Below are positions 3,267-17,673 of a DNA stretch of 48,809 nucleotides, in pieces. Position 1 is the stretch's first letter. Every line of letters starts with the position of its first letter. The stretch is from the IMG/VR virus record IMGVR_UViG_3300037466_001923, one strand, 5' to 3'. This DNA is from a virus. The translations under genes and the position numbers were made by a program. The notes beneath the pieces were generated by a model, which did not search any database, had not been told where the DNA came from, and worked only from the letters and a program-made list of their open reading frames with translations.

Positions 3267-3673
3267 GCATTCCTCGCAGCGAGTACCGCTTCCATGAGAG
3301 TCATCTGGGCACGCCAGACGAGAAATTGGGTCAACACGTGGTTACCCAGAACGCGCTCCACCTCGTCGATCTTCTCGGCGGGCAGCGAGCGGCGCGCGTT
3401 GCCTTTCGAGTTCACGGGCTCCGGGTGGAAGTAGTCCGAGACGTGCTGGTGCTGAAGGTCGGCCAGCGCCGCCAGCATTTGCAGCTTCAGCCCAGGCAGC
3501 ACGCGGTGCTTCCACGCCAGCGCGCATGCCTCGCGAAAGGTTTGGCACTTGGCGATCTCGTCATCCGGCAAGAACCGGCGTTTGGGCTCCCCTTGGGCCG
3601 CAGGGGGCACTGCAAACCCTGCGTGGGAGCGCCCCGAGGGCAATTCATTCATCTGCATCGCGTGTTTCCTCAT
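3263..3673 (-). CDS. Hypothetical protein in the cII position (first gene after the cro-proximal terminator)
   Basis: 136-aa ORF. An AGGAA SD favours Met6 (3658) as the start. No family recognised. Confidence 0.5.
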   Translation of the reverse strand: MRKHAMQMNELPSGRSHAGFAVPPAAQGEPKRRFLPDDEIAKCQTFREACALAWKHRVLPGLKLQMLAALADLQHQHVSDYFHPEPVNSKGNARRSLPAEKIDEVERVLGNHVLTQFLVWRAQMTLMEAVLAARNA

Positions 3674-3721
3674 TGGGAAATTTCATCGGTTCCACGGTCG
3701 CATCCACAGTCGATCGTGGAT

Positions 3722-3751
3722 TCAAATAAAGGGCATCGAAACCCGATGCCC
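3722..3751 (-). terminator. Rho-independent terminator downstream of cro (tR1-like)
   Basis: GGGCATCG/CGATGCCC 8-bp stem at 3731-3751, followed on the minus strand by TTTATTT. Confidence 0.6.
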
Positions 3752-3773
3752 TGCAATCCCACTGATGTCACCC

Positions 3774-4073
3774 CTATTTCCTCGCACCCTTGCCGCGCTG
3801 ACGACCGTTCGGGACTTGGACGTCATCGATCGACTTGATGCGATCGACGCCCTCAACGAGATCCGGCCAAACCCGCGAGAGCAGTTCCGCGGGAAACATG
3901 TCCTTCCGCGTAACCAATCCGCCTGTGGCATCCTCAATCGGAATTCCGAAAGGAACGGGGACGGGGCGCTCACCGCTGGCCCATCGACTAACATCAGCAG
4001 CATGTGCACCAATCGCCCTGCTGAGCGAGGCAAGCCGTCCGCGTTTTTGGGAGAGGTAGGTCTTCAGGTCCAT
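3774..4073 (-). CDS. cro: Cro/YdaS-type HTH regulator
   Basis: MDLKTYLSQKRGRLASLSRAIGAHAADVSRWASGERPVP. Start set at ATG 4073, because the longer ORF start (4121) lies upstream of the predicted promoter. Confidence 0.75.
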   Translation of the reverse strand: MDLKTYLSQKRGRLASLSRAIGAHAADVSRWASGERPVPVPFGIPIEDATGGLVTRKDMFPAELLSRVWPDLVEGVDRIKSIDDVQVPNGRQRGKGARK

Positions 4074-4158: not shown

Positions 4159-4998
4159 ATGAAAACCATCGACGAAATCCGACTGGACAACCTGCTGCTG
4201 GCGATCAGCCGCGCAGGCACCGCAACGGCGCTGGCCGAGAAGTCAGGGCTTTCCGCCGCCTACCTAAGCCAGATCAAGAACCGGCAGCCAGACAGTAAGA
4301 CTGGAAACCCGAAGAACATGGGGGACGATGCGGCGCGGAAAATTGAGGCCGGCATTGGCGAAAAGCGTGGTTGGATGGATGTGGACCATTCCACGACAAC
4401 CTTGCTGATTCCTGTCAAGGCAAAAGATTATTCAGATCAGATTGAAACCAGCCTTAATGAGCTTCCTCAGGCGCCCTTTTACAATCCTCAACAAACACCC
4501 ACAAGAACGCTTACAGGCGTCAAGGTGCGTCCGATTGTTACTTACGAGGACCTGGAAGAACTCCCCAAGGAGTCTACGGTTCTCATCACGAGGATTGACG
4601 TGGAGCTGTCTGCGGGGAACGGGAGGGAGACCTGGCATATTGAGGAGAAGGAGCCGCTGCCATTTCAAGCGGACTACATCCGGACCCTCGATGCCAAGCC
4701 TAAGAACTTAGTCGCCGTGAAGGTCAACGGTGACAGCATGGAGACGCGGCTGTTCGACAAGGACACGGTGGTAGTAGACACCGCCGACACGCGTGTACCA
4801 GCCAATGGCGGTGTATTTGCCCTGGTCTATGCAGGGGAGCTGCTGGTCAAGCGCTTATTTAGGTTGCCGGACGGAAGCTTGAAGATCGTCAGCGACAACG
4901 CGGCTCGCTACGAACCCGTGAATGTTGGGCCGGAGCAAATTGACCATGTGAGCATCATCGGCAGAGTGAAATACCGTTCTGGGACTGGCGATTTCTGA
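4159..4998 (+). CDS. cI: CI-type repressor: N-terminal HTH plus C-terminal S24 (LexA-like) autopeptidase
   Basis: HTH TALAEKSGLSAAYLSQIKN. The S24 part has VNGDSMETRLF (Ser nucleophile) and LLVKRLF (Lys). Confidence 0.9.
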   Translation: MKTIDEIRLDNLLLAISRAGTATALAEKSGLSAAYLSQIKNRQPDSKTGNPKNMGDDAARKIEAGIGEKRGWMDVDHSTTTLLIPVKAKDYSDQIETSLNELPQAPFYNPQQTPTRTLTGVKVRPIVTYEDLEELPKESTVLITRIDVELSAGNGRETWHIEEKEPLPFQADYIRTLDAKPKNLVAVKVNGDSMETRLFDKDTVVVDTADTRVPANGGVFALVYAGELLVKRLFRLPDGSLKIVSDNAARYEPVNVGPEQIDHVSIIGRVKYRSGTGDF

Positions 4999-5372: not shown

Positions 5373-5596
5373 TGAACTCCACCTGGAAGATCTTCGTCGA
5401 TGCGGCAAAAGAAACTCCAAAGCTGTATTTCGCTCCTCTGCGCGCCATAGCGAAAAGCCTCGGCCAAGTGCAAACGGAAATGCGGCAGGGACGCGGCACC
5501 GTCGTTACGGTGGCCAAGTCGCGTGCGACCAACGCAGCGAAGCGCAAGGCGATGAAGATCGCTCTCAAGAAAGCAGGCTTCAGGAAGCAGAAATAG
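5369..5596 (+). CDS. Small basic protein (75 aa), translationally coupled to 5076..5372
   Basis: ATGA overlap at 5369-5372. MMNSTWKIFVDAAKETPK...KRKAMKIALKKAGFRKQK. Followed by a strong terminator. Confidence 0.5.
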   Translation: MMNSTWKIFVDAAKETPKLYFAPLRAIAKSLGQVQTEMRQGRGTVVTVAKSRATNAAKRKAMKIALKKAGFRKQK

Positions 5597-5623
5597 GCGC
5601 GCATCGCTCGCGACGAGAAAAAG

Positions 5624-5648
5624 AAACCCGCTTGGCGGGTTTTTTTTC
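5624..5648 (+). terminator. Rho-independent terminator ending the cI operon
   Basis: AAACCCGC-TTG-GCGGGTTT hairpin followed by a T8 run. Confidence 0.8.
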
Positions 5649-5698
5649 GTCCATGTGACGCGTTTTTATACCTTGCCTGGACCCATCGCTATAAAAGC

Positions 5699-5719
5699 TG
5701 GCCCGCCATGGGCTTTTTT
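5699..5719 (+). terminator. Weaker second hairpin plus T6
   Basis: GCCC-gccat-GGGC then TTTTTT. Confidence 0.35.
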
Positions 5720-5744
5720 GTTGCCTGTACGCTACAGACTCGCA

Positions 5745-5813
5745 ACGGCATTCGCTAAAGAAATTTAGCGATCCCCTAAATTTACCTCTTGCACTTTATT
5801 TAGCGCCTCGCTA
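5745..5813. promoter_or_regulatory. OL-like operator cluster with the same TAGCG-N3-CGCTA motif
   Basis: 5801-5813 TAGCGcctCGCTA (perfect), 5766-5778 TAGCGatcCCCTA, and a half-site CGCTA at 5753-5757. Confidence 0.5.
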
Positions 5814-5817
5814 TAGT
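5789..5817 (+). promoter_or_regulatory. PL-like promoter TTGCAC-17-TATAGT
   Basis: -35 at 5789-5794, -10 at 5812-5817. The operator overlaps the spacer and -10 exactly as at PR. Confidence 0.6.
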
Positions 5818-5861
5818 TCGCCCATCGACGCACCACCGGTGCCAACAAGATGGAGGACGCG

Positions 5862-6116
5862 ATGCAAGCAGCCCAAACCCGCGCCAACGCACTGAGCAAC
5901 AAGGCGCCTACCACTTACTGGACGAAACCTTTCCACGGCATCCAGCACCTCGGCACCGGCGACCGCTGGGTGACGGTCGAGGACAAGGGCTGCATCGCTC
6001 AGCTCGTCTGCTGGTTCCCCGGCTGCGGTTTCCGCCCCGATGTCACCACGCACACCGATGCCGAAACGGCTCGCCAAGCTGGCGAAGCGTGGTTCGGTCT
6101 CTTCGGGCACGCCTGA
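5862..6116 (+). CDS. Hypothetical protein, first gene of the PL-type operon
   Basis: ORF 5850..6116. ATG 5862 is preferred because GGAGGA lies 4 nt upstream. Confidence 0.55.
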   Translation: MQAAQTRANALSNKAPTTYWTKPFHGIQHLGTGDRWVTVEDKGCIAQLVCWFPGCGFRPDVTTHTDAETARQAGEAWFGLFGHA

Positions 6117-6119
6117 ACC

Positions 6120-6275
6120 ATGACGAACCAACAGCTCGGCGCCGTCCTTCTTTCGGTGGCAGTAATGGCCATCGCCATCGCCGTGCACACCGCCTGGCGC
6201 ATCAAGCACGACCGCTTCACGGTCGACGAAATGGATCAGAACAACGACCAGCGCTCACAGAAGCACCGCCGCTGA
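6120..6275 (+). CDS. 51-aa single-TM protein (below the ORF-track size cutoff)
   Basis: My translation: MTNQQLGAVLLSVAVMAIAIAVHTAWRIKHDRFTVDEMDQNNDQRSQKHRR. Confidence 0.4.
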   Translation: MTNQQLGAVLLSVAVMAIAIAVHTAWRIKHDRFTVDEMDQNNDQRSQKHRR

Positions 6276-6285
6276 CCAACAGGGG

Positions 6286-6651
6286 ATGACGATCATGACG
6301 CTAACCGACGCGCTAAATGCGGCATTTGGAAAATCCGCAAAGACGCTGGATGTCTCGCACGTGGCCAACTACATGGAAGAAGACGTCGAGCCGTTCGGCC
6401 TCGTTCTGGATGACAACGGCGGGATCTTCGTCTCTTGTGGCGGCGACGTTATTGGCCAATTTTCCACGACGGCCAAGAACACGCGCCTGTGCTTTTGCGT
6501 GATCGTCAACGATGACGCGGGAAAAAAGTGGGACTACGAAAAACAAGAAATGCAGGCCATGTATGAACGCGGCGAAAAAGACCAGATTGACTGGAGCAAA
6601 TGGCATTCAAGTCGCCCGCGCAAGGTGCTCCGCGTCGTTGCAAGCATCTAA
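6286..6651 (+). CDS. Hypothetical protein
   Basis: 121-aa ORF. The start may instead be ATG 6295. Confidence 0.55.
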   Translation: MTIMTLTDALNAAFGKSAKTLDVSHVANYMEEDVEPFGLVLDDNGGIFVSCGGDVIGQFSTTAKNTRLCFCVIVNDDAGKKWDYEKQEMQAMYERGEKDQIDWSKWHSSRPRKVLRVVASI

Positions 6652-6694
6652 CCCCGCCACTGAACACGACATATAAGCCACGAAACAAAACATC

Positions 6695-7075
6695 ATGAAG
6701 AAAACAATCTTTCTGCTTTTCGCTTCGCTCACTGCCCTGTATGGCTGCAGCCGCGATGCAGACGTTGCGTCTCGCAACCTTTCGAATGCCGCTGACAACT
6801 TCGAGATCAATCGCCGGATCGTCTTCTACAACGGCATCACCGGCGACTACATGCTCACGATCGAGGGCCTTTGCTCGAAGGACAACGACAGCACCGACCG
6901 AAAGCTTGTAATCGTCTGCAAGACGGGGCCCTCGACCTACAAAAAGCATTTCCTCGGTCTCTCCGACAACGTCACCTATTTCATTGAGCAGATCGACGGC
7001 GCCAACATCGGCACCTACCGCTACAAGGTGACGTTCAAGCCTTCGTCGATCGTTCCGGACATCGAAATTCGATAA
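6695..7075 (+). CDS. Lipoprotein
   Basis: MKKTIFLLFASLTALYGC: signal peptide with a lipobox-like LYGC. Confidence 0.65.
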   Translation: MKKTIFLLFASLTALYGCSRDADVASRNLSNAADNFEINRRIVFYNGITGDYMLTIEGLCSKDNDSTDRKLVIVCKTGPSTYKKHFLGLSDNVTYFIEQIDGANIGTYRYKVTFKPSSIVPDIEIR

Positions 7076-7089
7076 GAAGCGGAATCAAC

Positions 7090-7305
7090 ATGCACGTGGC
7101 CGAATTCGACATGTCCCGAGTGGTTACGCATTTCATCGAGTGTGACCACTGGCGTGAGTACAACCGCCCGCAAGCGTGGACCGTTGCGCTTTGTGTTGGC
7201 ATGAAGCACACGAGCTATCGCGATCTCTCCAGCACCGCTTACCCCGAGGCTTTCGCCGTCGTCGATGACTTCGGAACCCTCAAAACCGTGACGCCGTGGA
7301 GGTAG
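7090..7305 (+). CDS. Hypothetical protein
   Basis: 71-aa ORF in the operon. Confidence 0.5.
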   Translation: MHVAEFDMSRVVTHFIECDHWREYNRPQAWTVALCVGMKHTSYRDLSSTAYPEAFAVVDDFGTLKTVTPWR

Positions 7306-7307
7306 CC

Positions 7308-7463
7308 ATGCATCTGACCGACAACGAAGCCGCCATCCGCGCAGCTGAGCGCGAGAACCAATACAGCCGGCGCAAGCACAACAACCGAATCCTGAACGCA
7401 GTTGTGGGCGGCCTGATGGTTGTTGCGGCGATCTACTACTTGGTTCCTCACTGGGGAATGTGA
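7308..7463 (+). CDS. 51-aa C-terminal-TM protein (below the ORF-track cutoff)
   Basis: My translation: MHLTDNEAAIRAAERENQYSRRKHNNRILNAVVGGLMVVAAIYYLVPHWGM. Confidence 0.4.
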   Translation: MHLTDNEAAIRAAERENQYSRRKHNNRILNAVVGGLMVVAAIYYLVPHWGM

Positions 7464-7684
7464 TGCCCGTACCCGTTTCTGCGCGTCAACGCACCGAATT
7501 CAATCTGGTACCGATCAACGGTCCCATACAAAGCCTTCTCGTCGAGCCGCGCCGCATTGCGTGGGCCAGGTCGATACGAAAGCACGCTCCCCAAGCGCTT
7601 GCGTATCTGGCCCTCGTGTGCGGCGCGATTGGAGTCGGCTGCGGCTGGTATGTCTCCTTCGTCCTCGGCGTCACGCGCACGTGA
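7463..7684 (+). CDS. Small protein with a C-terminal TM segment
   Basis: ALAYLALVCGAIGVGCGWYVSFVLGV. ATG 7463 overlaps the upstream stop. Confidence 0.45.
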   Translation: MPVPVSARQRTEFNLVPINGPIQSLLVEPRRIAWARSIRKHAPQALAYLALVCGAIGVGCGWYVSFVLGVTRT

Positions 7685-7752
7685 CAACTGCTCACCTCCG
7701 GCGCTTGACTCTCTTCGCCAACCTTTCAGCGCATTTCCAACACACAGAACGT

Positions 7753-7956
7753 ATGCAGATCAAATCTCGAATCGAACTCGACGCTGACGACATCAAACAG
7801 GCCATTCAGAACTTTGTGCGTGAGAAGACCGGTCGGGACATCGTCAGCGTTTGCAAGGTCGAGCGCGAACGCGGCAGCGAAGGCTTCAGCGTTCCTTCTG
7901 CTTACGACCTCGGCCCTGAGCCTATCGACGAAACGACCAAGATCAAGGGGGCCTGA
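7753..7956 (+). CDS. Hypothetical protein, 67 aa
   Basis: Plausible coding part (MQIKSRIELDADDIKQAIQNFVREK...) of ORF-track entry 7420..7956. Confidence 0.5.
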   Translation: MQIKSRIELDADDIKQAIQNFVREKTGRDIVSVCKVERERGSEGFSVPSAYDLGPEPIDETTKIKGA

Positions 7957-7957
7957 A

Positions 7958-8428
7958 ATGCGTGCACTCCTCATGTGGATCACGTCGTTCTTGCCGGCCC
8001 GCGTCATCAGCGATAACGGTCACCCGTACCTGGAACGCTACTACGTCGGCACCCTCTTCGGCATCCGGTTCTATCTGCACCGCTTTGTCGGGTCCGATCC
8101 GGACCGAGGTGTGCACGATCACCCGTGGGCCTGGGCGCGCTCGATCGTGCTGGCCGGCTGGTACCTGGAGGAGCGCCGCACGGGTATTCGGTCCGTTCAT
8201 TGGTTCAACAGCCTGGAAGGCGACACCTTCCACCGGATCATCAAACCCGATGGCGTGGCCGACGTCTGGACCCTCTTCTATCACAAGGCTGGTGACGTCA
8301 AACCTTGGGGCTTCATGCGCTACCTGGGCCACGGACAGGCCTTGTGGAGCGAATACGTCTATGGCGGCAAAGGTAAAGAGACCGCCTGGTGGCTGACAGC
8401 TAAGAAAGGCCGGGATCTCCGTCTCTGA
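7958..8428 (+). CDS. Conserved hypothetical protein with an HDHPW motif
   Basis: Start at ATG 7958 inside ORF 7814..8428. YLERYYV...LHRFVGSDPDRGVHDHPWAW. Confidence 0.6.
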   Translation: MRALLMWITSFLPARVISDNGHPYLERYYVGTLFGIRFYLHRFVGSDPDRGVHDHPWAWARSIVLAGWYLEERRTGIRSVHWFNSLEGDTFHRIIKPDGVADVWTLFYHKAGDVKPWGFMRYLGHGQALWSEYVYGGKGKETAWWLTAKKGRDLRL

Positions 8429-8463
8429 ATTCACAAGCGCAATACCCATCAACAGGAGAACGC

Positions 8464-8832
8464 ATGCAACAAATCCAAATTCCGCCGCTTGCAGAAGGCG
8501 AGATCTACCTCTGCGGCGTCGTCAACGCTGCAGGCGATGTGACGCACACGATCCTGCTTCCCGCTGAAGCCGAGAAGCGCATGAGCTGGCCTGACGCCAT
8601 GGAGTGGGCCAAGGGCCTGAATGCCGATCTGCCGACGCGCGCTGAACTGGTGATGGCCTTCGAGCAGCACCGCAGCCAATTTAAAGAGGCGGCCTACTGG
8701 TCCAACACTCCGGACGCCGATCCCGAATATGCCGGCTGGGTTTGGTGTCAGTCCTTCGGCAACGGCTACCAGAGCTACGACCGGCAGCTCGTCGAGTTGC
8801 GCGCCCGTGCCGTCCGCAGATTGACGATTTAA
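8464..8832 (+). CDS. DGR target protein 1, DUF1566/C-type-lectin-fold type
   Basis: WPDAMEWAKGLNADLPTRAEL...AYWS...GWVWCQSFGNGYQSYDRQLVELRARAVRRL. The C-terminus is VR1. Confidence 0.85.
   Translation: MQQIQIPPLAEGEIYLCGVVNAAGDVTHTILLPAEAEKRMSWPDAMEWAKGLNADLPTRAELVMAFEQHRSQFKEAAYWSNTPDADPEYAGWVWCQSFGNGYQSYDRQLVELRARAVRRLTI
8731..8823 (+). repeat. DGR variable repeat VR1
   Basis: 93-bp ungapped match to the TR. Of 17 differences, 15 are at TR adenines and 2 are non-A at the 5' edge. Confidence 0.8.
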
Positions 8833-8862
8833 CCCTTCATTCATTTTCAGGAGAGGTCAGCA

Positions 8863-9318
8863 ATGACGCCCACGCTTGAAGCAGTTGAAGCAAAGCATGC
8901 CGAGATCACCGCCATGATCGAGGCTATCCGCAAGGCAGCGGCACGCGAATACAAGGTCGCCGGCGGCACGATCCAACTGAACCACGGAGAACAGTACGCC
9001 GGCCTCATTCTCGGCAAAGACGGCGAGCCGGATCATCACCTGATCCTCCTCCCCGGCGATGAAGCTGAACTGAACTGGGACGATGCCAAGAAGTGGGCCA
9101 AGGAACAGGGCGGCGAGTTGCCGACGCGCCGCGAGCAATCGCTCTTGTACGCCAATCTCAAAGATGAGTTCCAGGGCGCCTGGTACTGGTCCGGAGAGGC
9201 TCACCAGCGCGAGTCCGGCTGGGCTTGGTGTCAGTACTTCGGCTACGGCACCCAGAGCCACCTCCGACAGGACACCGAGTTGCGCGCCCGTGCCGTCCGC
9301 AGATTGATCCTTTTGTAA
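8863..9318 (+). CDS. DGR target protein 2, DUF1566/C-type-lectin-fold type (paralogue of 8464..8832)
   Basis: WDDAKKWAKEQGGELPTRREQ...WYWS...GWAWCQYFGYGTQSHLRQDTELRARAVRRL. The C-terminus is VR2. Confidence 0.85.
   Translation: MTPTLEAVEAKHAEITAMIEAIRKAAAREYKVAGGTIQLNHGEQYAGLILGKDGEPDHHLILLPGDEAELNWDDAKKWAKEQGGELPTRREQSLLYANLKDEFQGAWYWSGEAHQRESGWAWCQYFGYGTQSHLRQDTELRARAVRRLILL
9214..9306 (+). repeat. DGR variable repeat VR2
   Basis: 93-bp ungapped match to the TR. All 13 differences are at TR adenines. Confidence 0.9.
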
Positions 9319-9331
9319 TTTAACAATTACA
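9314..9331 (+). other. Hairpin TGTAATT-TAAC-AATTACA just downstream of VR2
   Basis: Perfect 7-bp inverted repeat with a 4-nt loop, 7 nt after the VR2 end. Confidence 0.55.
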
Positions 9332-9337
9332 TCCACC

Positions 9338-9712
9338 GTGGCACTGCACACAAACCTTCCGATCTACAAGGCGGCCTATGGGTTGCTGGACGTGGTGACG
9401 GACCTGGTCAAGAACATGGCTCGCGACTTCAAGCGGAGCATCGGCGAGAAGATCAGCGCGGAATGCATCGAGATCATGGTGCTGGTCTTCCGCGCCAATG
9501 TCGCAGCCGACAAGGCGCCGCACCTGGGCGAACTTATCGAACGCCTTCAGGTGATCGAGCTGCTTTTGCGCCTTGGCATGGACAAGCGCCTGATCTCGCG
9601 GCCAGCTTATGCCAAAGCCGTCGAGATTACGACCAGCATCGGAAAGCAGGCCAATGGCTGGAAGAAGTCCGCAAATCGCCCGCTTCATGGAGGTCAAGGC
9701 CGTCATGACTGA
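9338..9712 (+). CDS. avd: Accessory variability determinant (Avd-like four-helix-bundle protein)
   Basis: 124-aa helical protein between target and TR. NLPIYKAAYGLLDVVTDLVKNMARDFK... GTG start. Confidence 0.7.
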   Translation: MALHTNLPIYKAAYGLLDVVTDLVKNMARDFKRSIGEKISAECIEIMVLVFRANVAADKAPHLGELIERLQVIELLLRLGMDKRLISRPAYAKAVEITTSIGKQANGWKKSANRPLHGGQGRHD

Positions 9713-9853
9713 GCGATCTTTCAATCTGGTCGTGCCGCTGGCCCACAAGGCCACCGCCATGCGCGTAACGGAAACCGACCGCCGGTGTGCGGCGCGGTCC
9801 AGCGCAGTTTCCCTCCTGAGCAATCGGCCGGGCGACGTAGATAGCACGACATA

Positions 9854-9946
9854 TCCGGCTGGGCTTGGTATCAGAACTTCAACAACGGCAACCAGAACAA
9901 CAACCAACAGAACAACGAGTTGCGCGCCCGTGCCGTCCGCAGATTG
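9854..9946 (+). repeat. DGR template repeat (TR)
   Basis: AAC-rich; in the VR frame it reads WAWYQNFNNGNQNNNQQNNELRARAVRRL. An in-frame TAG lies immediately upstream, so it is non-coding in that frame. Confidence 0.9.
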
Positions 9947-11066
9947 GAAATCGAATGCCGCGTTCTCGTTCGCCGAGCTGGTCGAAGCCTATTTCGACTG
10001 CCGGCGGACGAAGCGCAACAGCGCGAGCGCCCTAGCGTTCGAAATCGATATGGAGAACAACCTGCGTCGCCTGTTCGACGAGCTGCTCAACGGAAGCTAT
10101 ATGCCCGGGCGCTCGAAGTGCTTTGTCATCGACCGTCCGAAGCATCGCGAAGTATGGGCAGCAGAGTTTCGCGATCGCATCGTGCACCACCTGCTTTACA
10201 ACCGCATCGGCCCGCGCTTCGAGCGATCGTTCATTGCTGACTCGTGTGCATGTATCAAGGGACGCGGCACGCTTTACGCCGCTCAGCGCCTGGAAGACAA
10301 GGTGCGGTCAATCACACAGAACTGGGCACGCCCGGCGCACTACCTCAAGTGCGATCTGGCCAACTTCTTCGTCAGCATCGACAAGCGTGTCCTGCTTGAT
10401 CTTCTGCACGCAAGGATTCCAGAACCGTTCTGGCGTGATCTGACCGAAATCGTGCTGATGCACGATCCCCGGGACGACTTCGTCTACCTGGGAGATCCGG
10501 CGATGATCAATCGCGTCCCGCCCCACAAACGCCTGATTAAGCAACCGGCACACCTGGGCCTACCAATCGGCAACCTGTCTTCACAGTTCTTTGCCAACGT
10601 CTATCTCAACGAGTTGGATCAGTTCGTGAAGCACGAGCTGCGCTGCCGTCATTACATCCGCTACGTGGATGACTTTGTGTTGCTGCACGAATCACCGCAA
10701 TGGCTTAACGACGCCCACGCTGCCATCGCAGCCTTTTTGCCGGCACGCCTTCACGCGCGCCTCAACCCCAACAAGACCATCCTGCAGCCGGTTGCCCGTG
10801 GCATCGACTTCGTCGGCCAGGTGATTCGGCCGTGGGTTCGGCACACCCGCAAGCGGACGCTGCATAGCGGCATCCAGCGCGTTCGCGAGATACCGGCTGC
10901 AGACGTCTACCAGGTCACGAACAGCTACTTTGGCCTGCTGCGTCAGGCCACCGGAAGCCATGCCGAGCGGGCAAAGCTCGCCAACGTCGCCCTTCAACGT
11001 GGGCATGCGGTAAATCGCCAGCTCACAAAGATCTATCGCAGCTCCCTACACGGAGAGGAATCCTGA
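9930..11066 (+). CDS. DGR reverse transcriptase
   Basis: PIGNLSSQFFANVYLNELD (the DGR-type SQ motif) and YIRYVDDFVLL. Start uncertain: GTG 9930 lies inside the TR, or ATG 9705 overlaps the avd stop. The ORF track gives 9609..11066. Confidence 0.9.
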   Translation: MPSADWKSNAAFSFAELVEAYFDCRRTKRNSASALAFEIDMENNLRRLFDELLNGSYMPGRSKCFVIDRPKHREVWAAEFRDRIVHHLLYNRIGPRFERSFIADSCACIKGRGTLYAAQRLEDKVRSITQNWARPAHYLKCDLANFFVSIDKRVLLDLLHARIPEPFWRDLTEIVLMHDPRDDFVYLGDPAMINRVPPHKRLIKQPAHLGLPIGNLSSQFFANVYLNELDQFVKHELRCRHYIRYVDDFVLLHESPQWLNDAHAAIAAFLPARLHARLNPNKTILQPVARGIDFVGQVIRPWVRHTRKRTLHSGIQRVREIPAADVYQVTNSYFGLLRQATGSHAERAKLANVALQRGHAVNRQLTKIYRSSLHGEES

Positions 11067-11725
11067 TGTTGACTCACCAACTTCAAGGCGCCTTTGAGGA
11101 TGCCTACGAAAAAGCAGCCGCATCCAGCAAACCCGATGATTGGATGAATGCCGCCCTCATGGGCAAGCAGTTCTCCAATGCATATCGCGAGGCGTCACGG
11201 TATCCGGCAGCGTATCAATACCTTTTCACGTCGCCGATCGGTGGCGGCGACGTTTGGCGTCCAGATTCATCCTATTGGAACGGTCAACGCCCGAAGGCCT
11301 CTCGCGCCCTTTTCTCGGTTCCCGTTTCCCGGCCAAATCAGGATCCCGCAAATCTTGAGGGGTTGGCGAAAGCGCTGTTGGCTCCTCGTGAAATCGTCCG
11401 TGATGCAGATGGCTGGCTAGATCACCCAGCATTGCCGGTATGCGATGAAAGCGTGCGCTTTGACGAACTGCTTAGCGCCTTTGGGATGGAAACCTATTTC
11501 CGCGCCATGGATGGCGACGTGAGCCCGGAAGAGTATGACCGCTACTATGACGAACAAGGCGGTTGTGCTGGCTGGACGCCTGCGCCTCCCGACGGCGATG
11601 GCTGGCGCTTGCTGGCTGTTTATGACACAGAAGACGGGCCAAATGCGATGTTTGCACGTGCGAAGCAGCCCGAGCCCCGCAAGCGCTATGCGCAAGATGC
11701 TCAGAAGCAAGGGGGCGCGCGATGA
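11066..11725 (+). CDS. Hypothetical protein, coupled to both the RT (TGATG) and the methyltransferase (ATGA)
   Basis: 219-aa ORF; no family recognised. Confidence 0.6.
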   Translation: MLTHQLQGAFEDAYEKAAASSKPDDWMNAALMGKQFSNAYREASRYPAAYQYLFTSPIGGGDVWRPDSSYWNGQRPKASRALFSVPVSRPNQDPANLEGLAKALLAPREIVRDADGWLDHPALPVCDESVRFDELLSAFGMETYFRAMDGDVSPEEYDRYYDEQGGCAGWTPAPPDGDGWRLLAVYDTEDGPNAMFARAKQPEPRKRYAQDAQKQGGAR

Positions 11726-13512
11726 TCCGCGACCAGTTCCTGCTCGACATCCAAGAAGAGCTGATCGTCGACAACTTCGCTGGCGGCGGTGGCGCGAGCT
11801 GCGGCATTGAGCTGGCGCTCGGGCGTCACGTAGACCATGCGATCAACCATGACCCCGAGGCCGTGGCTATGCACGCCATGAACCATCCGCAGACTGAACA
11901 TCACTGCGAATCGGTGTGGGACGTTAAGCCTCTGGAGTTGACCGGCGGGCGCCCGGTCGGACTCGCGTGGTTTTCGCCCGACTGCAAGCACTTCAGCAAA
12001 GCCAAGGGCGGTAAGCCGCGCGACAAGAAAATCCGAGGTCTTGCCTGGGTGGCAATGCGCTGGGCAGCTGTGGTGCGTCCGCGCGTCATCATCCTGGAGA
12101 ACGTCGAAGAGTTTCAGACCTGGGGGCCGGTGCTCACTGATGGCACGCCGTGCCCGAAGCGCAAGGGCGACACCTTCCGCTCTTTCGTGCGCCAACTGCG
12201 GGAAAAGGGCTATGCGGTCGAATGGCGAGAGTTGCGCGCGTGTGATTACGGCGCGCCGACCATCCGCAAGCGCCTGTTCCTGATCGCTCGGTGTGACGGA
12301 AAGGCGATAGCCTGGCCGGAGCCTACGCACGGCGCACCTAATAGCGCTGGCGTGCTGGCAAAGCGCCTGAAGCCGTGGCGCACGGCGGCCGAGTGCATCG
12401 ACTGGTCGATTCTTCCGCAGTCCATCTTCGAGCGCGACCGCCCATTGGCGGACGCCACGCTGCGTCGAATCGCGCGTGGCATCCGGCGCTATGTCATCGA
12501 TTCAGCCGATCCGTTCATTGTGAAGGTGAACCACGTCGGCGATGGCTTCCGTGGCCAGCGCACGACCGAGCCAGTGCAAACCTTGACGGCGAAGCATGGT
12601 TTTGGCCTTGTTGCTCCGGTGCTGACCGAGTGCGCCAACGCTTCCACCCAGCGAAACTTCCAGGCCGGAGAGCCGCTGCGCACCCAATGCGCCGAGGTCA
12701 AAGGCGGGCATTTCGCTCTGGCTGCCGCAACGCTTGTGCAAACCGGTTACGGCGAGCGGCCAGGACAAGCACCGCGTGCGCCCGGCTTGGACAAACCGCT
12801 GGGCACGGCCATGGCTGGCGGCGTAAAACATGCACTAGTGTCGGCTTTCCTTGCAAAGCACTACGGGGGAAATTATGACGGGCCTGGCGTTGGCTTGCCT
12901 GAGCCGGCCAGCACGATTACGACCACCGATCACCACGCACTGGTTTCCGCGCAACTGGTAGGGTGTGGTGGCCGCGCTGGCCAGAGCCGCCCGCGAGACG
13001 CTAGCGAGCCTGCACAGACGCTCACCGCAAAAGCGGACACGTGCGTCGTCACCTCCAATCTGGTCAAGTTGCGCGGCGAATGCACCGGCAGCAAGACCGA
13101 CGAGCCCGTGCCGACGATTTCGGCGCAAGGTAACCACATCGGCGAGGTCCGGGCCTTCCTGGTCAAGTACTACAGCGAGGGCGGCCAGGATCAGGATTGC
13201 CGCGATCCGATGCACACCATCCCGACGAAAGATCGACTCGGCTTGGTGACGGTCGCGGGCCAGGAATACCAGATCGCCGACATTGGCATGCGCATGCTGG
13301 AGCCGCACGAGCTGTACGCCGCCCAGGGGTTTCCTAGCAGCTACGTCATCGCTCCAGTCATAAACGGCCGCCGGCTCCCCAAGCATGCTCAGGTGCGCAT
13401 GTGCGGCAACAGTGTCAGTCCGCCGCTGGCCGCAGCCCTGGTGCGCGCGAATGTGCCGGAGATGGCCAGTTGGTCCGCGCGCGAGGCTAAATCAATAGGG
13501 GTGGCAGCATGA
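11722..13512 (+). CDS. DNA (cytosine-5)-methyltransferase
   Basis: Motif I DNFAGGGG, IV SPDCKHFS, VI ENVEEF, VIII RKRLFLIA, X GNSVSPPLAAALV. Confidence 0.9.
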   Translation: MIRDQFLLDIQEELIVDNFAGGGGASCGIELALGRHVDHAINHDPEAVAMHAMNHPQTEHHCESVWDVKPLELTGGRPVGLAWFSPDCKHFSKAKGGKPRDKKIRGLAWVAMRWAAVVRPRVIILENVEEFQTWGPVLTDGTPCPKRKGDTFRSFVRQLREKGYAVEWRELRACDYGAPTIRKRLFLIARCDGKAIAWPEPTHGAPNSAGVLAKRLKPWRTAAECIDWSILPQSIFERDRPLADATLRRIARGIRRYVIDSADPFIVKVNHVGDGFRGQRTTEPVQTLTAKHGFGLVAPVLTECANASTQRNFQAGEPLRTQCAEVKGGHFALAAATLVQTGYGERPGQAPRAPGLDKPLGTAMAGGVKHALVSAFLAKHYGGNYDGPGVGLPEPASTITTTDHHALVSAQLVGCGGRAGQSRPRDASEPAQTLTAKADTCVVTSNLVKLRGECTGSKTDEPVPTISAQGNHIGEVRAFLVKYYSEGGQDQDCRDPMHTIPTKDRLGLVTVAGQEYQIADIGMRMLEPHELYAAQGFPSSYVIAPVINGRRLPKHAQVRMCGNSVSPPLAAALVRANVPEMASWSAREAKSIGVAA

Positions 13513-14596: not shown

Positions 14597-15147
14597 TGCA
14601 AATCCATATCACGCGCGTGCCGAGTCGGCCCAAACCCACTGTTGGCGACCGAAAGATGATCGGAGGCGTTGAGCACGTGCGCGTCTTGGAGCGGGTAAAG
14701 AGCGGCCCGCATAAAGGTGCGTATGTCGTCAGGGGAATCCGCTCTTGTTTCGAATGGGTTCCGGTGAACGAAGCTCCCGAGCATCTGCAGAAAATGGCTG
14801 GACGCTGGATCGGTAAACAACGTCCCGCGCAGCAGCCGCCAGAACTTGCCTCCGATGATCTGCGAAAGCTGCAGCACATGCTGGGGGCCACACCCGGGCA
14901 CTACCCAAAAACGAAATGGGGGTGGCGCAACTACTACGCGACAACTGGCGGCCCCGCGATGGAGGCAATGAAGCGCATGGAGGCACAAGGGCTCGTAAAG
15001 CTTGGGCATACCAGCAATGACGGCATGGCGTACTACCACGCCACTGAGGTAGGTTGCCGCGCCGCCGGCTTGGCAGGAAAGCAGATCAAACGTGCCCTGG
15101 GAGATAACGGCTCTCCGGAATATCATGTGGAAGGCTGTGAACCATGA
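14596..15147 (+). CDS. Hypothetical protein with a 3' end altered by IS insertion (native stop would follow codon AAC at 15106-15108)
   Basis: The last 12 residues, GSPEYHVEGCEP, are encoded by the IS inverted repeat. Removing 15109-17386 restores ...ALGDN-TGA overlapping the next ATG. Confidence 0.6.
   Translation: MQIHITRVPSRPKPTVGDRKMIGGVEHVRVLERVKSGPHKGAYVVRGIRSCFEWVPVNEAPEHLQKMAGRWIGKQRPAQQPPELASDDLRKLQHMLGATPGHYPKTKWGWRNYYATTGGPAMEAMKRMEAQGLVKLGHTSNDGMAYYHATEVGCRAAGLAGKQIKRALGDNGSPEYHVEGCEP
15101..15108. repeat. 8-bp target-site duplication GAGATAAC (left)
   Basis: Identical octamer at 17379-17386, abutting the other IR. Confidence 0.85.
15109..15132. repeat. IS terminal inverted repeat (transposase-distal end)
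   Basis: Starts GGCTCT. The transposase stop codon lies inside it. Confidence 0.8.
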
Positions 15148-16571
15148 CTAGCTCGCCCCGTGTGGAATCGTCGATAGCAGGTCGAGCAGATATGCACCCG
15201 TTTCGGGTAGGCGCGACGGTTTGCTTCGCGGCGAACTTCATCCTTCGTGATGGGCGGCAATGTGTGTGTTTCCAACTCATCGGCATCGAACACGCCATTG
15301 CACGACCCGCAGCGGCTACCGAGCGCTTCAACAAGCGCGACTTGCCTTTCGACTTGGTCAGCAGTTCGTTTCTTCATGTGGCCCTCCGCTGGCTCCTTCT
15401 TGTGCAGCTTTCCGTACAGCAGCCGTGCGCGCAGCACCTCGAAGCTGTAGCCGCGGCCGGAGCGGTTGATGACCTTTGCGACCCCGTTCAGGGCTTCCGT
15501 GTAGCCGTTCGAAATCGGGTGGTCGAAGTAGGCGAGCATCTCCTCGCGCCAGTTCCGGGTGGAAGTGAGCAACGGCAGGAAGCTCTTCTTGCCCTTCTTC
15601 ATGGCGGCTGGAACGGACTTGCGCCATTCGTCCAGACGCTCAGAGGCTGCAGCCTTGTCGGGCGCGTCGTAGATGTCGTAGAACGCTTCCTTCAGCCGGT
15701 AGGCGGTCGCCACGTGCGGCTCGTTGTCCAGCCACATCTGGAGGTTGAAGCGGCCCTGTTCGTCGAGGTTCTTGTATCGCATCCGGAGCAACGCTTTGCG
15801 CCGCATCCAGTCACGGCTGACGGCCTTCTCCTGCTCCTTGCCGAGGCTGATTCGAATATCGTCCATGGCGCGGTTCGCCATTCTGACCAAGTGGAACTTG
15901 TCGATAACGACTGGCAGACCAGGGAAGACGGATTGCGCTGCGTCCTTGTACGGTCGCCACATGTCGATGGCGAGGCCCTTGACGCCGCCGCGCTCCTTGA
16001 ACTGATGCAGCCACGCCGTCACCAGCGGCTTGTCGCGGTCGGGCAGCATATCAATAGGAACTCGATTGACCACGTCGGTGATGATGCAGCGGAGCTTGCC
16101 GTCAATCTGCGTCTCGTCGATGCCCAGCCACTCTGGCAGCCAGGGTTTGTATTCCGCGTTCAGGCGGTCGATGTAGTCGCCGGCCAGGGTTCGGACGGTC
16201 TTGTCATCGCAGCCCACATGCTCAGCGATGCGAGTGAAGGTATCTCGCAGGCACTGTTCCTCGATGTACTGCACGCAACGGGCTGTCATGCGCGTGGCGG
16301 GATGGATACCGCCCAATGGCTGGATAAACGTGCCGCCGCACTCTCTGCACCTGAAACGCTGCGCATTGGCCTCAATGCTCACAGGACGGCCCCGAATAGG
16401 GCTATCTCGAAAAATGATCATTTTGGGGCCGTGCTTATAAACGCGGCCAATTACGCCGCATTTTTGGCATGCCTCCGGCAAAACTGTGTAGTCGGCCGAG
16501 ATGATGTAGTGGTCGTCTTCGGTGCGCGTCGCGGTCGGAACCCAGCCGGGGAGGTCGAGAATGTCGGTCAT
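15123..16571 (-). CDS. ISL3-family transposase with a roughly 90-aa C-terminal Cys-rich extension
   Basis: N-terminal zf-ISL3 CQKCG...FRCRECGG. DDE core LGIDETQ...LAIDMWRPY...VIDKFH...NGYTEALNG. Tail has CGSCNG...CSTCYRRFH. Confidence 0.9.
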   Translation of the reverse strand: MTDILDLPGWVPTATRTEDDHYIISADYTVLPEACQKCGVIGRVYKHGPKMIIFRDSPIRGRPVSIEANAQRFRCRECGGTFIQPLGGIHPATRMTARCVQYIEEQCLRDTFTRIAEHVGCDDKTVRTLAGDYIDRLNAEYKPWLPEWLGIDETQIDGKLRCIITDVVNRVPIDMLPDRDKPLVTAWLHQFKERGGVKGLAIDMWRPYKDAAQSVFPGLPVVIDKFHLVRMANRAMDDIRISLGKEQEKAVSRDWMRRKALLRMRYKNLDEQGRFNLQMWLDNEPHVATAYRLKEAFYDIYDAPDKAAASERLDEWRKSVPAAMKKGKKSFLPLLTSTRNWREEMLAYFDHPISNGYTEALNGVAKVINRSGRGYSFEVLRARLLYGKLHKKEPAEGHMKKRTADQVERQVALVEALGSRCGSCNGVFDADELETHTLPPITKDEVRREANRRAYPKRVHICSTCYRRFHTGRASHGSQPST

Positions 16572-17306
16572 TTAGAAGCCGGTCAGCAATTGGTATTGGA
16601 CCGGCATCTTATCAATGCCCGAAAGGAACGACTCCGCCTCGCGCCAGTCGTTGGCATTACGGCCTTGGCGGCGAGCTGCAAACGACCACGCCATCGAATC
16701 GGCCGTATAAAGGCATTCACGCACGAATCCGCTACGGAGCGCCGTGGTCTTCAGGCCGAAGCCGTGCAGGCGAAGGTCCGGGCGACGCATCTTGATAGCG
16801 CAAAGAACCGCCTCAATCGCCTTCGGGTCGCCGTTTCTCTTGCAGACGCTGCCCACGCCAACCCAAGCTCCAGGCGCCAGACGGTCGCCATACATGTCGA
16901 TATGGCGGACATAGTCTTCGGGAGCGAAGCCTTGCAGCACGGGCATGATGTAGACACCACCGGTATCGCAAGCTACCAACGCGTCATATCGCTCAATGGT
17001 CAGTCGCTGATGCTCCGCAACCGACAAGCCTGTCTTCGCCACCATGAACGGCTCGCACATATAGTCCTGCGCCACAGCGCACAAAAGATTGCCATTAGTC
17101 GCCCAGCGGCGGATTTGAGCGGCGTACACACTCGGCTCTTCTGGATAGCCGCCGTGAGTAAGGATGGTCGTGAACGCCCCCGAGTCCATCATCCAATCGC
17201 CGACGGCGAAGGGGCTCACGCGCTTCTTCAAGCGGTTCACCGAAATCATTGCCGCCTCGAAGTTCTTGGCATCCGACGGCTGATGCAAACCGATAAAGAA
17301 TCGCAT
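16572..17306 (-). CDS. dpdA: TGT-like DNA transglycosylase (DpdA-like, 7-deazaguanine DNA modification), tentative
   Basis: MRFFIGLHQP...ISVNRL...WMMDSGAF...AQDYMCEP...MPVLQGF...VGVGSVCKR...LHGFGLK...ADSMAWS. Motif order matches my recollection of DpdA/TGT-family proteins. TAAATG junction with the transposase. Confidence 0.5.
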   Translation of the reverse strand: MRFFIGLHQPSDAKNFEAAMISVNRLKKRVSPFAVGDWMMDSGAFTTILTHGGYPEEPSVYAAQIRRWATNGNLLCAVAQDYMCEPFMVAKTGLSVAEHQRLTIERYDALVACDTGGVYIMPVLQGFAPEDYVRHIDMYGDRLAPGAWVGVGSVCKRNGDPKAIEAVLCAIKMRRPDLRLHGFGLKTTALRSGFVRECLYTADSMAWSFAARRQGRNANDWREAESFLSGIDKMPVQYQLLTGF

Positions 17307-17354
17307 TTATTCCACACGTTTTTCCGTTTTCTTAACTTATCATGGAATCATGGA

Positions 17355-17378
17355 TTACACACGTTATTCCGCAGAGCC
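17355..17378. repeat. IS terminal inverted repeat (passenger-gene end)
   Basis: Reverse complement starts GGCTCT. A 17-bp inner direct copy sits at 17310-17326. Confidence 0.8.
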
Positions 17379-17386
17379 GAGATAAC
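17379..17386. repeat. 8-bp target-site duplication GAGATAAC (right)
   Basis: Identical to 15101-15108. Confidence 0.85.
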
Positions 17387-17388
17387 TG

Positions 17389-17673
17389 ATGGCCGTCTAT
17401 GTCGACGACATGGCCGCCCAGTACGGCCGCATGGTGATGTTCCACATGGTCGCAGACACCGACGACGAGCTGCACGCAATGGCCGACAAGATCGGCGTCG
17501 CGCGACGCTGGCACCAGAAAGCCGGAACGGTGCACAGCCACTACGACATCTGCAAGGCGAAGCGGATGCAAGCTATCGGCCATGGCGCTGTTGAAGTGGA
17601 CCGCCGAGGACTCGCCTCCATCATCAAATCAAAGCGCGCAGCCGCGGCCCTTGGAGAGAGCAAACATGAGTGA
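17389..17673 (+). CDS. DUF4031-like protein
   Basis: MAVYVDD...HMVADTDDELHAMADKIGVARRWHQ...HYDI pattern. Confidence 0.55.
   Translation: MAVYVDDMAAQYGRMVMFHMVADTDDELHAMADKIGVARRWHQKAGTVHSHYDICKAKRMQAIGHGAVEVDRRGLASIIKSKRAAAALGESKHE

Follow-up and report, generated by a model that had tools for sequence, protein, structure and literature searches.

Evidence for a diversity-generating retroelement with two small DUF1566-type targets and an RT-15 RNA on the 5' side of its template repeat in a Ralstonia/Burkholderia-type phage

We analysed a stretch of 48,809 nucleotides of viral DNA (IMG/VR record IMGVR_UViG_3300037466_001923), hereafter the window, in which positions 8464-11066 had been predicted from the letters alone to hold a complete diversity-generating retroelement (DGR). 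Genes elsewhere in the window fit a temperate phage: a CI-like repressor is encoded at 4159-4998 and an integrase at 18903-20003. The features of the locus are as follows.

8464-8832, + strand: target gene 1, an ORF of 122 aa, DUF1566/Lcl_C-type (sub-cutoff Pfam match; homologs annotated DUF1566), with VR1 at its C-terminus
8731-8823, + strand: variable region 1 (VR1), at the 3' end of target gene 1; 17 differences from the template repeat (TR)
8794-8823, + strand: IMH-like invariant end of VR1, counterpart of 9917-9946
8863-9318, + strand: target gene 2, 151 aa, a paralog of target 1, with VR2 at its C-terminus
9214-9306, + strand: variable region 2 (VR2), at the 3' end of target gene 2; 13 differences from TR
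9277-9306, + strand: IMH-like invariant end of VR2, counterpart of 9917-9946
9338-9712, + strand: avd, accessory variability determinant, 124 aa, Pfam bAvd
9674-9856, + strand: RT-15 structured RNA (Rfam RF03018), overlapping the 3' end and stop codon of avd and ending at the 5' boundary of TR
9854-9946, + strand: template repeat, with 27 adenines, non-coding in the VR frame
9917-9946, + strand: IMH*-like GC-rich 3' end of TR
9930-11066, + strand: DGR reverse transcriptase (RT; RVT_1, 50.6 bits), starting at GTG 9930 or ATG 9759

The original prediction was built on a 93-bp segment present in three copies, and this was reproduced: a repeat search returned a 93-nt family at 8732-8824, 9215-9307 and 9855-9947, one nucleotide off the 9854-9946 register used here, in which the shared segment spans 92-93 nt. 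In that register every one of the 13 mismatches between VR2 and TR is a change of a TR adenine (to G in 6 cases, C in 4 and T in 3), as are 15 of the 17 in VR1, the two exceptions being a T>G at the homology boundary (alignment position 1) and a C>T at position 11 (9864/8741). Between positions 17 and 62 TR holds 24 adenines, 18 of which are changed in at least one VR. Each of these counts had been made earlier by eye and none had to be altered. Pooled over both VRs, 28 of the 30 TR/VR mismatches hit a template adenine (hypergeometric P = 3.6e-9 for VR1 and 9.0e-9 for VR2). The 9854 copy had also been called an AAC-rich, non-coding template, and rightly so: translated in the VR frame it reads SGWAWYQNFNNGNQNNNQQNNELRARAVRRL, with nine AAC codons, and four codons 5' of TR the frame is closed by a TAG (9842-9844).

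VR1 stops 9 nt and VR2 12 nt short of the stop codon of its own gene. We found no additional VR elsewhere in the window on either strand, and a remote target like that claimed for gene 57 of phage Magia was absent from both strands of the window when any base was allowed at TR adenines together with up to 12 other mismatches. Among relatives TR is conserved while the VRs vary; in each of four related phages TR is conserved and VR1 and VR2 differ from it solely at TR adenines, and across 111 TR/VR pairs of related loci the differences likewise fall at TR adenines. The C>T at 8741, the only internal non-A mismatch, is private to the window and replaces Ala93 of target 1 by Val, the residue being Ala in 18 of 18 close homologs. 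It has not been overwritten since it arose, which counts against DGR activity in the window's own genome.

An invariant, IMH-like end had been proposed for the last 30 bp of the repeat, and all 30 nt are indeed identical in TR, VR1 and VR2, the sequences diverging directly after 9946 (G in TR, A in the VRs). In relatives the segment CAGATCG of TR corresponds to CAGATTG/T in the VRs. Judged from sequence, this GC-rich 30-nt end would be IMH/IMH*-like, with TR and VR distinguishable there; IMH and IMH* may be identical in DGRs (Wu et al. 2018, PMC5758913). Information transfer from TR to VR stops at 9940: in the 111 TR/VR pairs, identity at non-A positions is 97-100% through position 0 (9940) and decays from +2 on. 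We also looked for a conserved GC-rich hairpin or inverted repeat 3' of the VRs and found none. VR1 is followed by nothing of the kind, and VR2 by no more than an AT-rich stem of 7 bp (9314-9331) that Magia lacks, with unremarkable fold z-scores, so that a BPP-1-like hairpin was rejected. A GC-rich inverted repeat 3' of IMH is known from BPP-1 and Legionella, but a hairpin occurs in only 34% of DGRs and is not a defining feature (Wu et al. 2018, PMC5758913).

The two targets are small paralogous DUF1566/Lcl_C-type proteins in the early/lysogeny region, and not Mtd-like tail fibres. They are 41% identical over 114 aa (E = 2e-28), and their Pfam Lcl_C (DUF1566) scores of 29.1 bits (target 1) and 22.8 bits (target 2) both lie below the cutoff of 34.9. 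Many homologs carry a precomputed PF07603 match. The closest homolog of target 1 is from Ralstonia holmesii (93%). In 18 close Ralstonia homologs of target 1, residues 1-92 are near-invariant and hypervariability is confined to residues 95-110, the codons that contain an adenine in TR. An AF2 model of target 1 (pLDDT 75.4, but below 50 in the VR segment) weakly suggests a C-type lectin fold, insofar as all of the top 50 Foldseek matches in the PDB are C-type lectin-like domains, with low scores (best E 0.027, TM about 0.45). Read by eye rather than with a prediction tool, the target sequences display no recognised N-terminal signal, lipoprotein signal, anchoring domain or appended domain. They correspond to the short DUF1566-only type within target category 'd' of Wu et al. 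2018 (PMC5758913), which comprises DUF1566/DUF823/Fib_succ_major proteins with CLec2 VRs, among them Legionella LdtA; short DUF1566-only targets make up about half of that category, and cassettes with two targets are 13% of DGRs (same source). LdtA is a surface lipoprotein, in contrast to the window targets with their lack of a recognised lipoprotein signal in the sequence as read.

The non-coding part of the cassette is where it departs from BPP-1, the prototype (mtd-avd-TR-brt) and the only mechanistically understood DGR. In BPP-1 TR abuts avd, and a 144-nt spacer between TR and brt matches RF03022 Phage_DGR (the Sp/RT-10 region) with 104.7 bits, 3' of TR. In the window, by contrast, 142 nt lie between avd and TR, the RT follows TR without a spacer, and RF03022 has no match in 8000-11500 even at E <= 1. 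Instead, cmscan places RT-15 immediately 5' of TR (163.7 bits, gathering score 82; E = 1e-40), over model positions 1-192 of 192. All 17 related loci that were tested share this placement, which makes 18 of 18 cases with the window. Four short segments of this region are involved in the pairings discussed below.

9719-9728, + strand: RT-15 single-stranded linker UUUCAAUCUG, 5' strand of a long-range helix, complementary to 9940-9949
9730-9735, + strand: 5' strand (UCGUGC) of the RT-15 closing helix of the Rfam consensus structure, 1 nt past the linker
9844-9849, + strand: 3' strand (GCACGA) of the same closing helix, 5 nt 5' of TR
9940-9949, + strand: TR 3' edge CAGAUUGGAA, 3' strand of the long-range helix, from covariation and RNAfold

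The closing helix has compensatory variants across loci. The helix between linker and TR edge is an addition to the Rfam RT-15 model and not part of it. In an alignment of 35 distinct sequences 90.7% of its cells are paired, double-change cells number 25 against 7.7 in shuffles, at least eight state changes map to the RT tree, and the helix is present in both RNAfold structures (MFE and centroid). An equivalent upstream:TR-edge duplex was also considered for distant DGRs (RT 36-49% identity) and was dropped, because the control gave no enrichment: the median length of the longest Watson-Crick run was 6 both at the edge and in controls (p = 0.15). Apparent duplexes of 12-24 bp in these distant DGRs were an artefact, in that they only listed bases already paired by the fold.

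Alternatively, the stretch 9713-9853 could encode the N-terminus of a longer RT, with ATG 9759 or 9705 as its start, and owe its conservation to the protein rather than to a functional RNA. No stop interrupts the RT frame between 9609 and the end of TR. ATG 9759, which lies inside RT-15, is a conserved codon that 40 of 53 distinct loci retain in frame and with no stop after it, its distance to the RT is a multiple of three in most length variants, and the RT of Magia (gp44) is annotated from the matching ATG. Against this stand the full-length RT-15 match at twice the gathering score and the compensatory base changes in its helices. Moreover, ATG 9759 is absent, out of frame or followed by a stop in or before TR in the other 13 loci, several of which have an ATG 6-20 nt past TR instead, and similarity to BPP-1 Brt begins at residue 13 of the RT and 14 of Brt, counting from GTG 9930. 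We regard the coding reading as unlikely, although it and the RNA reading are not mutually exclusive. The evidence also bears on the earlier placement of TR just before or overlapping an RT start at 9930: GTG 9930, which lies inside TR, is plausible as a start in the window, but it is not conserved in relatives and reads CGC in the Magia group.

RT-15 is one of the motifs RT-1 to RT-19, and the passages on these motifs in Weinberg et al. 2017 (PMC5737381) describe it only as lying near RT genes, RT-10 alone being tied to a DGR, with speculation that others might be. Among the papers searched, none linked RT-15 to DGRs. The window holds a full-length member of the motif, here directly 5' of a DGR TR. 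As in BPP-1, two adjacent RNA duplexes bracket the template, with a topology that would be circularly permuted in the window. We propose tentatively, at somewhat less than even chances, that the structured RNA responsible for positioning, priming and stopping reverse transcription in this DGR clade lies in circularly permuted order 5' of the template, the corresponding RNA of BPP-1, Sp, being 3' of TR. [quoted passage not shown] Cis-priming at or beside G9728 would then yield a cDNA that begins opposite G9939 and terminates near 9855. If this is true, an orphan Rfam motif gains a function, and the DGR ribonucleoprotein core tolerates a permuted RNA connectivity. The RT-15:TR-edge helix offers a concrete, testable model for priming and termination in DGRs that have no spacer between TR and RT.

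Direct comparative evidence of recent activity is provided by prophage L166 of R. holmesii. Outside the VRs it agrees with the window at every position across about 3.5 kb (6235-9911), but the 186 nt of the VRs hold 31 differences, 15 in VR1 and 16 in VR2, with 30 of the 31, including all those in VR2, at positions of TR adenines. Both VRs were rewritten recently in this lineage, within a time in which the flanks gained no substitutions. As a clean natural experiment, with identical flanks and two rewritten VRs, the pair demonstrates activity of the clade over very short times and reveals that small, domain-less DUF1566 proteins among early/lysogeny genes are under diversifying pressure. A different view would be that the element is decayed or silent, and that its repeats record past activity with no diversification in this genome now. 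VR1 keeps the non-A mutation at 8741, which fresh retrohoming would erase, the RT has no obvious conserved ATG or ribosome-binding site, and a scan of 7600-11800 gave no sigma-70-like promoter. However, all ORFs are intact, including the catalytic YVDD, RT-15 and TR are fully conserved, and the comparison with the R. holmesii prophage shows rewriting of both VRs. Silence is very improbable in our judgement. Terminator-like sites in the scanned region did not exceed the shuffled expectation.

The proteins that would carry out diversification are of the expected kinds. An Avd-like ORF of 124 aa had been noted between target and template, and it passes the Pfam bAvd model (PF22296, 44.9 bits, cutoff 40), with a score below cutoff for NCBIfam DivGenRetAVD (45.3 against 80 bits) and no similarity to BPP-1 Avd in pairwise BLAST. 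A sequence search of Avd against the PDB was uninformative, returning designed-repeat (DARPin) proteins only. The RT carries both motifs that had been cited for it, PIGNLSSQFFANVYL and YIRYVDDFVLL, and Brt is its closest relative, with 30% identity over 306 aa in a collinear alignment (E = 8e-39). Its best PDB match is 8ub7_A (Brt; 328 aa, the length of Brt; E = 5.5e-34), while the best named group II intron or retron-type RTs in that search reach E = 2.4e-8 or weaker. The motif-4 sequence [I/L/V]GxxxSQ is IGNLSSQ in the RT and aligns with IGSLTSQ of Brt, its YVDD aligns with the catalytic YMDD, and an insertion of 28 aa sets the RT apart from Brt. That the RT might instead belong to another class (retron, group II intron or Abi/DRT), with the repeats being paralogous C-termini and a gene fragment shaped by normal mutation or gene conversion, would accord with the exclusively sub-threshold group II intron, retron and DRT models returned by NCBIfam and with the label 'retron-type RT' in related phage records, but is already contradicted and scarcely credible given NCBIfam scores that are all far below their cutoffs (82.8 against 300 bits, for example), a lead of about 25 orders of magnitude for Brt among solved structures, the adjacent avd gene, and an adenine-only mismatch pattern (P about 1e-9 per VR) that recurs in every related locus.

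Taken together, the Brt-like RT, Avd, the non-coding AAC-rich TR, two C-terminal VRs and their recent rewriting support the DGR interpretation, and we consider it very probable that 8464-11066 is a complete DGR of a temperate Ralstonia/Burkholderia-type phage, very recently active in its lineage. By analogy with BPP-1, from which the priming mode, the RNA intermediate, the role of Avd and the integration step are taken, an RNA spanning the 3' end of avd, RT-15 and TR would be reverse-transcribed by the RT with Avd, and template adenines would be copied unfaithfully during cDNA synthesis. The mutagenised cDNA would replace VR1 and VR2, the 3' ends homologous to it, in the two DUF1566/C-type-lectin-like genes, and some 11 surface codons per target protein would thus be randomised on a constant scaffold.

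The claim that the whole arrangement matches the BPP-1 paradigm stands for the gene order, target-avd-TR-RT, which both share. Further likenesses are the AAC-rich TR, a VR at the C-terminus of the target followed by a GC-rich, invariant IMH-like end, the match to an Avd profile, and information transfer that ends a few nucleotides short of the 3' boundary of TR. It does not hold for the type of target (BPP-1 has a single one, a tail-fibre protein of 381 aa, against two of 122 and 151 aa, DUF1566-type and in the early region, here), for RT-15 between avd and TR, or for the conserved hairpin after the VR, which is lacking in the window.

The cassette is of a kind already known, its family having been recorded in Burkholderia phage Magia (NC_070954, gp44-gp47; PMC7883833) and its target type and two-target layout catalogued. 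As a DGR the window consequently adds little; its value lies in the natural experiment and the RNA layout. Magia has the same cassette, with the same architecture, RT-15/TR layout and both VRs, and the cassette is also found in vB_E192a, vB_PL1 and the 'Shewanella' phage vB_Sb_QDWS. The authors of the Magia report named gp47 and the remote gene 57 as targets and gp46 as hypothetical (PMC7883833); from its sequence, the second adjacent gene is also a target, in the window as in Magia. Nucleotide identity between the Magia group and 8445-11040 of the window is about 75-77%, Magia itself being the best cassette match in the phage and representative-genome collections (76-77%), while the closest proteins are from Ralstonia. 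Because the flanking phage genomes of the Magia group and the window are unrelated, the cassette is a mobile module. The same layout was found in about 100 further loci, and the family is widespread in Ralstonia, Burkholderia and Pseudomonas prophages.

The original prediction, made from the sequence alone, described a complete diversity-generating retroelement (DGR) with adenine-only mismatches between a template repeat (TR) and its variable regions (VR1 and VR2). The observation was correct and the DGR interpretation is supported. The cassette comprises the following features:

8464-8832, plus strand, target 1, with VR1 at 8731-8823
8863-9318, plus strand, target 2, with VR2 at 9214-9306
9338-9712, plus strand, avd
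9854-9946, plus strand, TR
9930-11066, plus strand, reverse transcriptase (RT)

A repeat search found all three copies of the repeat exactly where they had been placed, and no additional copy elsewhere in the window. In ungapped alignment VR2 differs from the TR at 13 positions, every one of them a TR adenine (6 A>G, 4 A>C and 3 A>T), and 15 of the 17 mismatches in VR1 also fall on TR adenines; the two others lie at the boundary base (position 1) and at position 11 (C>T). Tested against 27 adenines among 92 shared positions, this bias gives a hypergeometric P of 3.6e-9 for VR1 and 9.0e-9 for VR2. The predicted counts within the repeat were reproduced as well, with 18 of the 24 TR adenines in positions 17-62 substituted in at least one VR and no difference among TR, VR1 and VR2 in the final 30 nt. 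The template, claimed to be AAC-rich, reads SGWAWYQNFNNGNQNNNQQNNELRARAVRRL in the VR frame, with nine AAC codons, and the in-frame TAG said to close it was found four codons upstream of the TR.

The 124-aa ORF recognized as Avd-like scored above the Pfam bAvd threshold (44.9 bits vs 40). The RT matches RVT_1. Among solved structures its closest relative, by a wide margin, is a 328-aa reverse transcriptase (PDB 8ub7_A, E = 5.5e-34), whereas no named group II intron or retron-type RT does better than E = 2.4e-8; every match to the NCBIfam group II, retron and DRT models was far under cutoff. Brt, the reverse transcriptase of Bordetella phage BPP-1, aligns over 306 collinear residues at 30% identity (E = 8e-39), pairing IGNLSSQ with IGSLTSQ and YVDD with YMDD, with one 28-aa insertion in the RT.

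Three independent sequence comparisons support activity of the DGR. First, this cassette also occurs, at ∼75-77% identity, in the Burkholderia phages Magia and vB_E192a and the "Shewanella" phage QDWS. The TR is conserved in all three, and apart from the boundary base their VR1 and VR2 depart from it at adenines only. Secondly, residues 1-92 of target 1 are nearly invariant in 18 close Ralstonia homologs (79-93% identical), and the residues that are hypervariable in these homologs are exactly 95, 97, 99, 100, 102, 104-107, 109 and 110, corresponding to the adenine-containing TR codons. Since all 18 homologs have Ala93, the one internal non-adenine mismatch of the window's VR1 is a private point mutation. 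Thirdly, positions 6235-9911 are 100% identical to a Ralstonia holmesii prophage outside the VRs, whereas VR1 differs at 15 positions and VR2 at 16; of these 31 differences, 30 lie at TR-adenine positions. Both targets were therefore rewritten before even one neutral substitution could arise in ∼3.5 kb. From 9912 rightward (window 9912-11181, prophage 5430-6718) the two sequences diverge, the RT gene being ∼11% different, and the look of this divergence suggests a recombination breakpoint inside the 3' part of the TR. The prophage TR reads AGC TAC in place of the window's AAC AAC, a replacement of two adenines in the template itself.

As a DGR, the cassette belongs to an already known kind. 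Short DUF1566-only targets were described as category d by Wu et al. 2018 (PMC5758913), who reported two-target cassettes in 13% of DGRs and hairpins in only 34%, and found that IMH/IMH* pairs can be identical. The Magia genome announcement (PMC7883833) reports "a potential DGR", and its published annotation names only gp47 and the remote gene 57 as targets. We found that the 3' end of Magia gp46 (3403-3867, annotated "hypothetical protein") forms a second VR, which departs from the TR at 11 positions, each of them an adenine.

Targets 1 and 2 are paralogous (41% identity), both with Lcl_C/DUF1566 matches below threshold. The AlphaFold model of target 1 has a pLDDT of 75.4, falling below 50 in the hypervariable segment, and all 50 of its leading PDB fold matches are C-type lectin-like domains. 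Since these matches are exclusively lectin-like yet all weak (best E = 0.027), a C-type lectin fold of the targets is supported in kind by the model, but not proven. A 7-bp AT-rich hairpin at 9314-9331 (TGTAATT-TAAC-AATTACA) overlaps the target 2 stop codon, 8 nt after VR2; no counterpart follows VR1, nor is it conserved in Magia.

The RNA architecture of the cassette is worth specialist attention. Conservation between the avd stop codon and the TR equals that of the best parts of the RT, and 9674-9856 is a full-length match to the structured RNA RT-15 (Rfam RF03018; 163.7 bits vs a gathering score of 82). All 17 related loci tested (RT identity at least 62%) contain RT-15, with its end within a few nt of the TR 5' boundary; in more distant loci it was absent at threshold. 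The end of the TR lies within ∼20 nt of the conserved RT N-terminus in ∼100 loci with a called TR. This layout is the reverse of that in BPP-1, where avd is followed without a gap by the TR, then by a 144-nt spacer (RF03022, Phage_DGR) and brt. Weinberg et al. 2017 (PMC5737381) tied RT-10 alone to a DGR and left the other RT motifs unassigned, and the literature searched held no paper connecting RT-15 with DGRs. We consider a variant of the known layout to be a credible and testable reading of this architecture. In a distant DGR locus (RT 36% identical), Rfam RT-14 (RF02921, 70.4 bits) matches 3798-3941, between the TR (3681-3800) and the RT, a position like that of Sp, the BPP-1 RNA region 3' of the TR. 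In view of this locus, at least three "RT-n" motifs (RT-10/Phage_DGR, RT-14 and RT-15) are DGR-associated, on different sides of the TR.

The TR 3' edge, CAGAUUGGAA (9940-9949), has its complement in the conserved single-stranded linker of RT-15, UUUCAAUCUG (9719-9728), and the helix between them appears in the MFE as well as the centroid structure that RNAfold gives for 9674-9960. Covariation was examined in 35 distinct linker/TR-edge combinations, with conserved flanking motifs as anchors and no freedom of alignment. Standard pairs occupied 90.7% of cells in the 8-bp core vs 25-41% in slid registers, and cells changed on both sides numbered 25 vs 7.7 ± 2.1 in shuffles, none of 500 reaching 25; the covariation score was 0.271 vs 0.104 in the control (0/500). 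One variable pair occurred as C-G (16), G-C (9), U-A (6), A-U (2) and U-G (1), with one mismatch, and changed state at least eight times on the RT tree. The helix is thus well supported but not beyond doubt, since neither of the two stricter measures (double-change pairs, 32/500, and double-change pair types, 50/500) was significant by itself and the register was taken from the window sequence. Its extension to distant DGR clades failed its control and was rejected. The adjacent closing helix of RT-15 (9730-9735:9844-9849) occurs in compensatory variants of its own, UCGCGC:GCGCGA, UCAUGC:GCAUGA, UCUUGC:GCAAGA and UUGCGC:GCGCAA.

Cryo-EM work on BPP-1 identified a template:primer duplex (Sp53-56:TR118-121), with A56 priming and G117 as the first templated base, and a "stop" duplex (Sp59-70:avd369-379) 2 nt from it, which ends a few nt before the TR, where cDNA synthesis terminates. 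In the window the strand order is the same, the gap between the primer-duplex and stop-helix strands being 1 nt instead of 2 nt and that from stop helix to TR 5 nt instead of a few, whereas the common strand lies 5' of the TR and not 3'. Across 111 TR/VR pairs, identity at non-adenine bases stays at 97-100% as far as the C at 9940 and collapses from +2 onward, so that the transfer of information stops exactly at the duplex's inner edge. Because the strand order recurs and transfer stops at this edge, we propose RT-15 as a putative circularly permuted functional counterpart of Sp, with cDNA initiation expected opposite G9939. The pairing behind this proposal is supported by evidence; the priming chemistry would follow by analogy only. 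The conserved RT-15 junction CUGGUCG (9726-9732) and the segment GUGGUCA of the BPP-1 spacer (GUGGUCAGC) both include UGGUC, and by hand count that BPP-1 segment holds the priming A56; the likeness could be a coincidence or a common RT-contact element.

A candidate RT start, GTG at 9930, yields an N-terminus that agrees with Brt, but this position is CGC in the Magia group. A conserved ATG inside RT-15 (9759-9761), from which an N-terminally extended RT might be made, shares the RT frame in 40 of 53 distinct loci, with no stop codon through the TR; it is unusable in the other 13, some of which carry an ATG 6-20 nt after the TR. Many length variants keep the distance from the RT-15 ATG to the RT at a multiple of 3.

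The window is a temperate phage or prophage, with these features:

4159-4998, CI-like repressor
18903-20003, integrase

Its nearest genomic relatives are prophages of Cupriavidus, Paraburkholderia, Burkholderia, Limnobacter and Pseudomonas, and the nearest target proteins are from Ralstonia. Homology to Magia is limited to 8445-11040, and the cassette therefore behaves as a mobile module. Its upstream neighbor (7814-8428) is a match to PHROG 4786 ("cysteine dioxygenase", E = 6e-32), and downstream (11066-13512) come a PHROG 20322 protein with unknown function and a C5 cytosine methylase of 596 aa; Magia's flanks have none of these. Positions 15106-16571 are 88.5% identical to an ISL3-family transposase/insertion sequence annotated in Burkholderia phage Bcep22; here a 482-aa ORF (15123-16571, minus strand) overlaps an 816-aa ORF (15144-17594, plus strand). 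The records OK094664.1 ("Shewanella phage vB_Sb_QDWS") and OP650936.1 ("Hujiaoplasma phage zrk29-1", Tenericutes host) are both 47,902 bp and match the cassette at almost equal coordinates and identity. Since both hold a Burkholderia-like, GC-rich cassette, they may represent one phage, with at least one host assignment doubtful.
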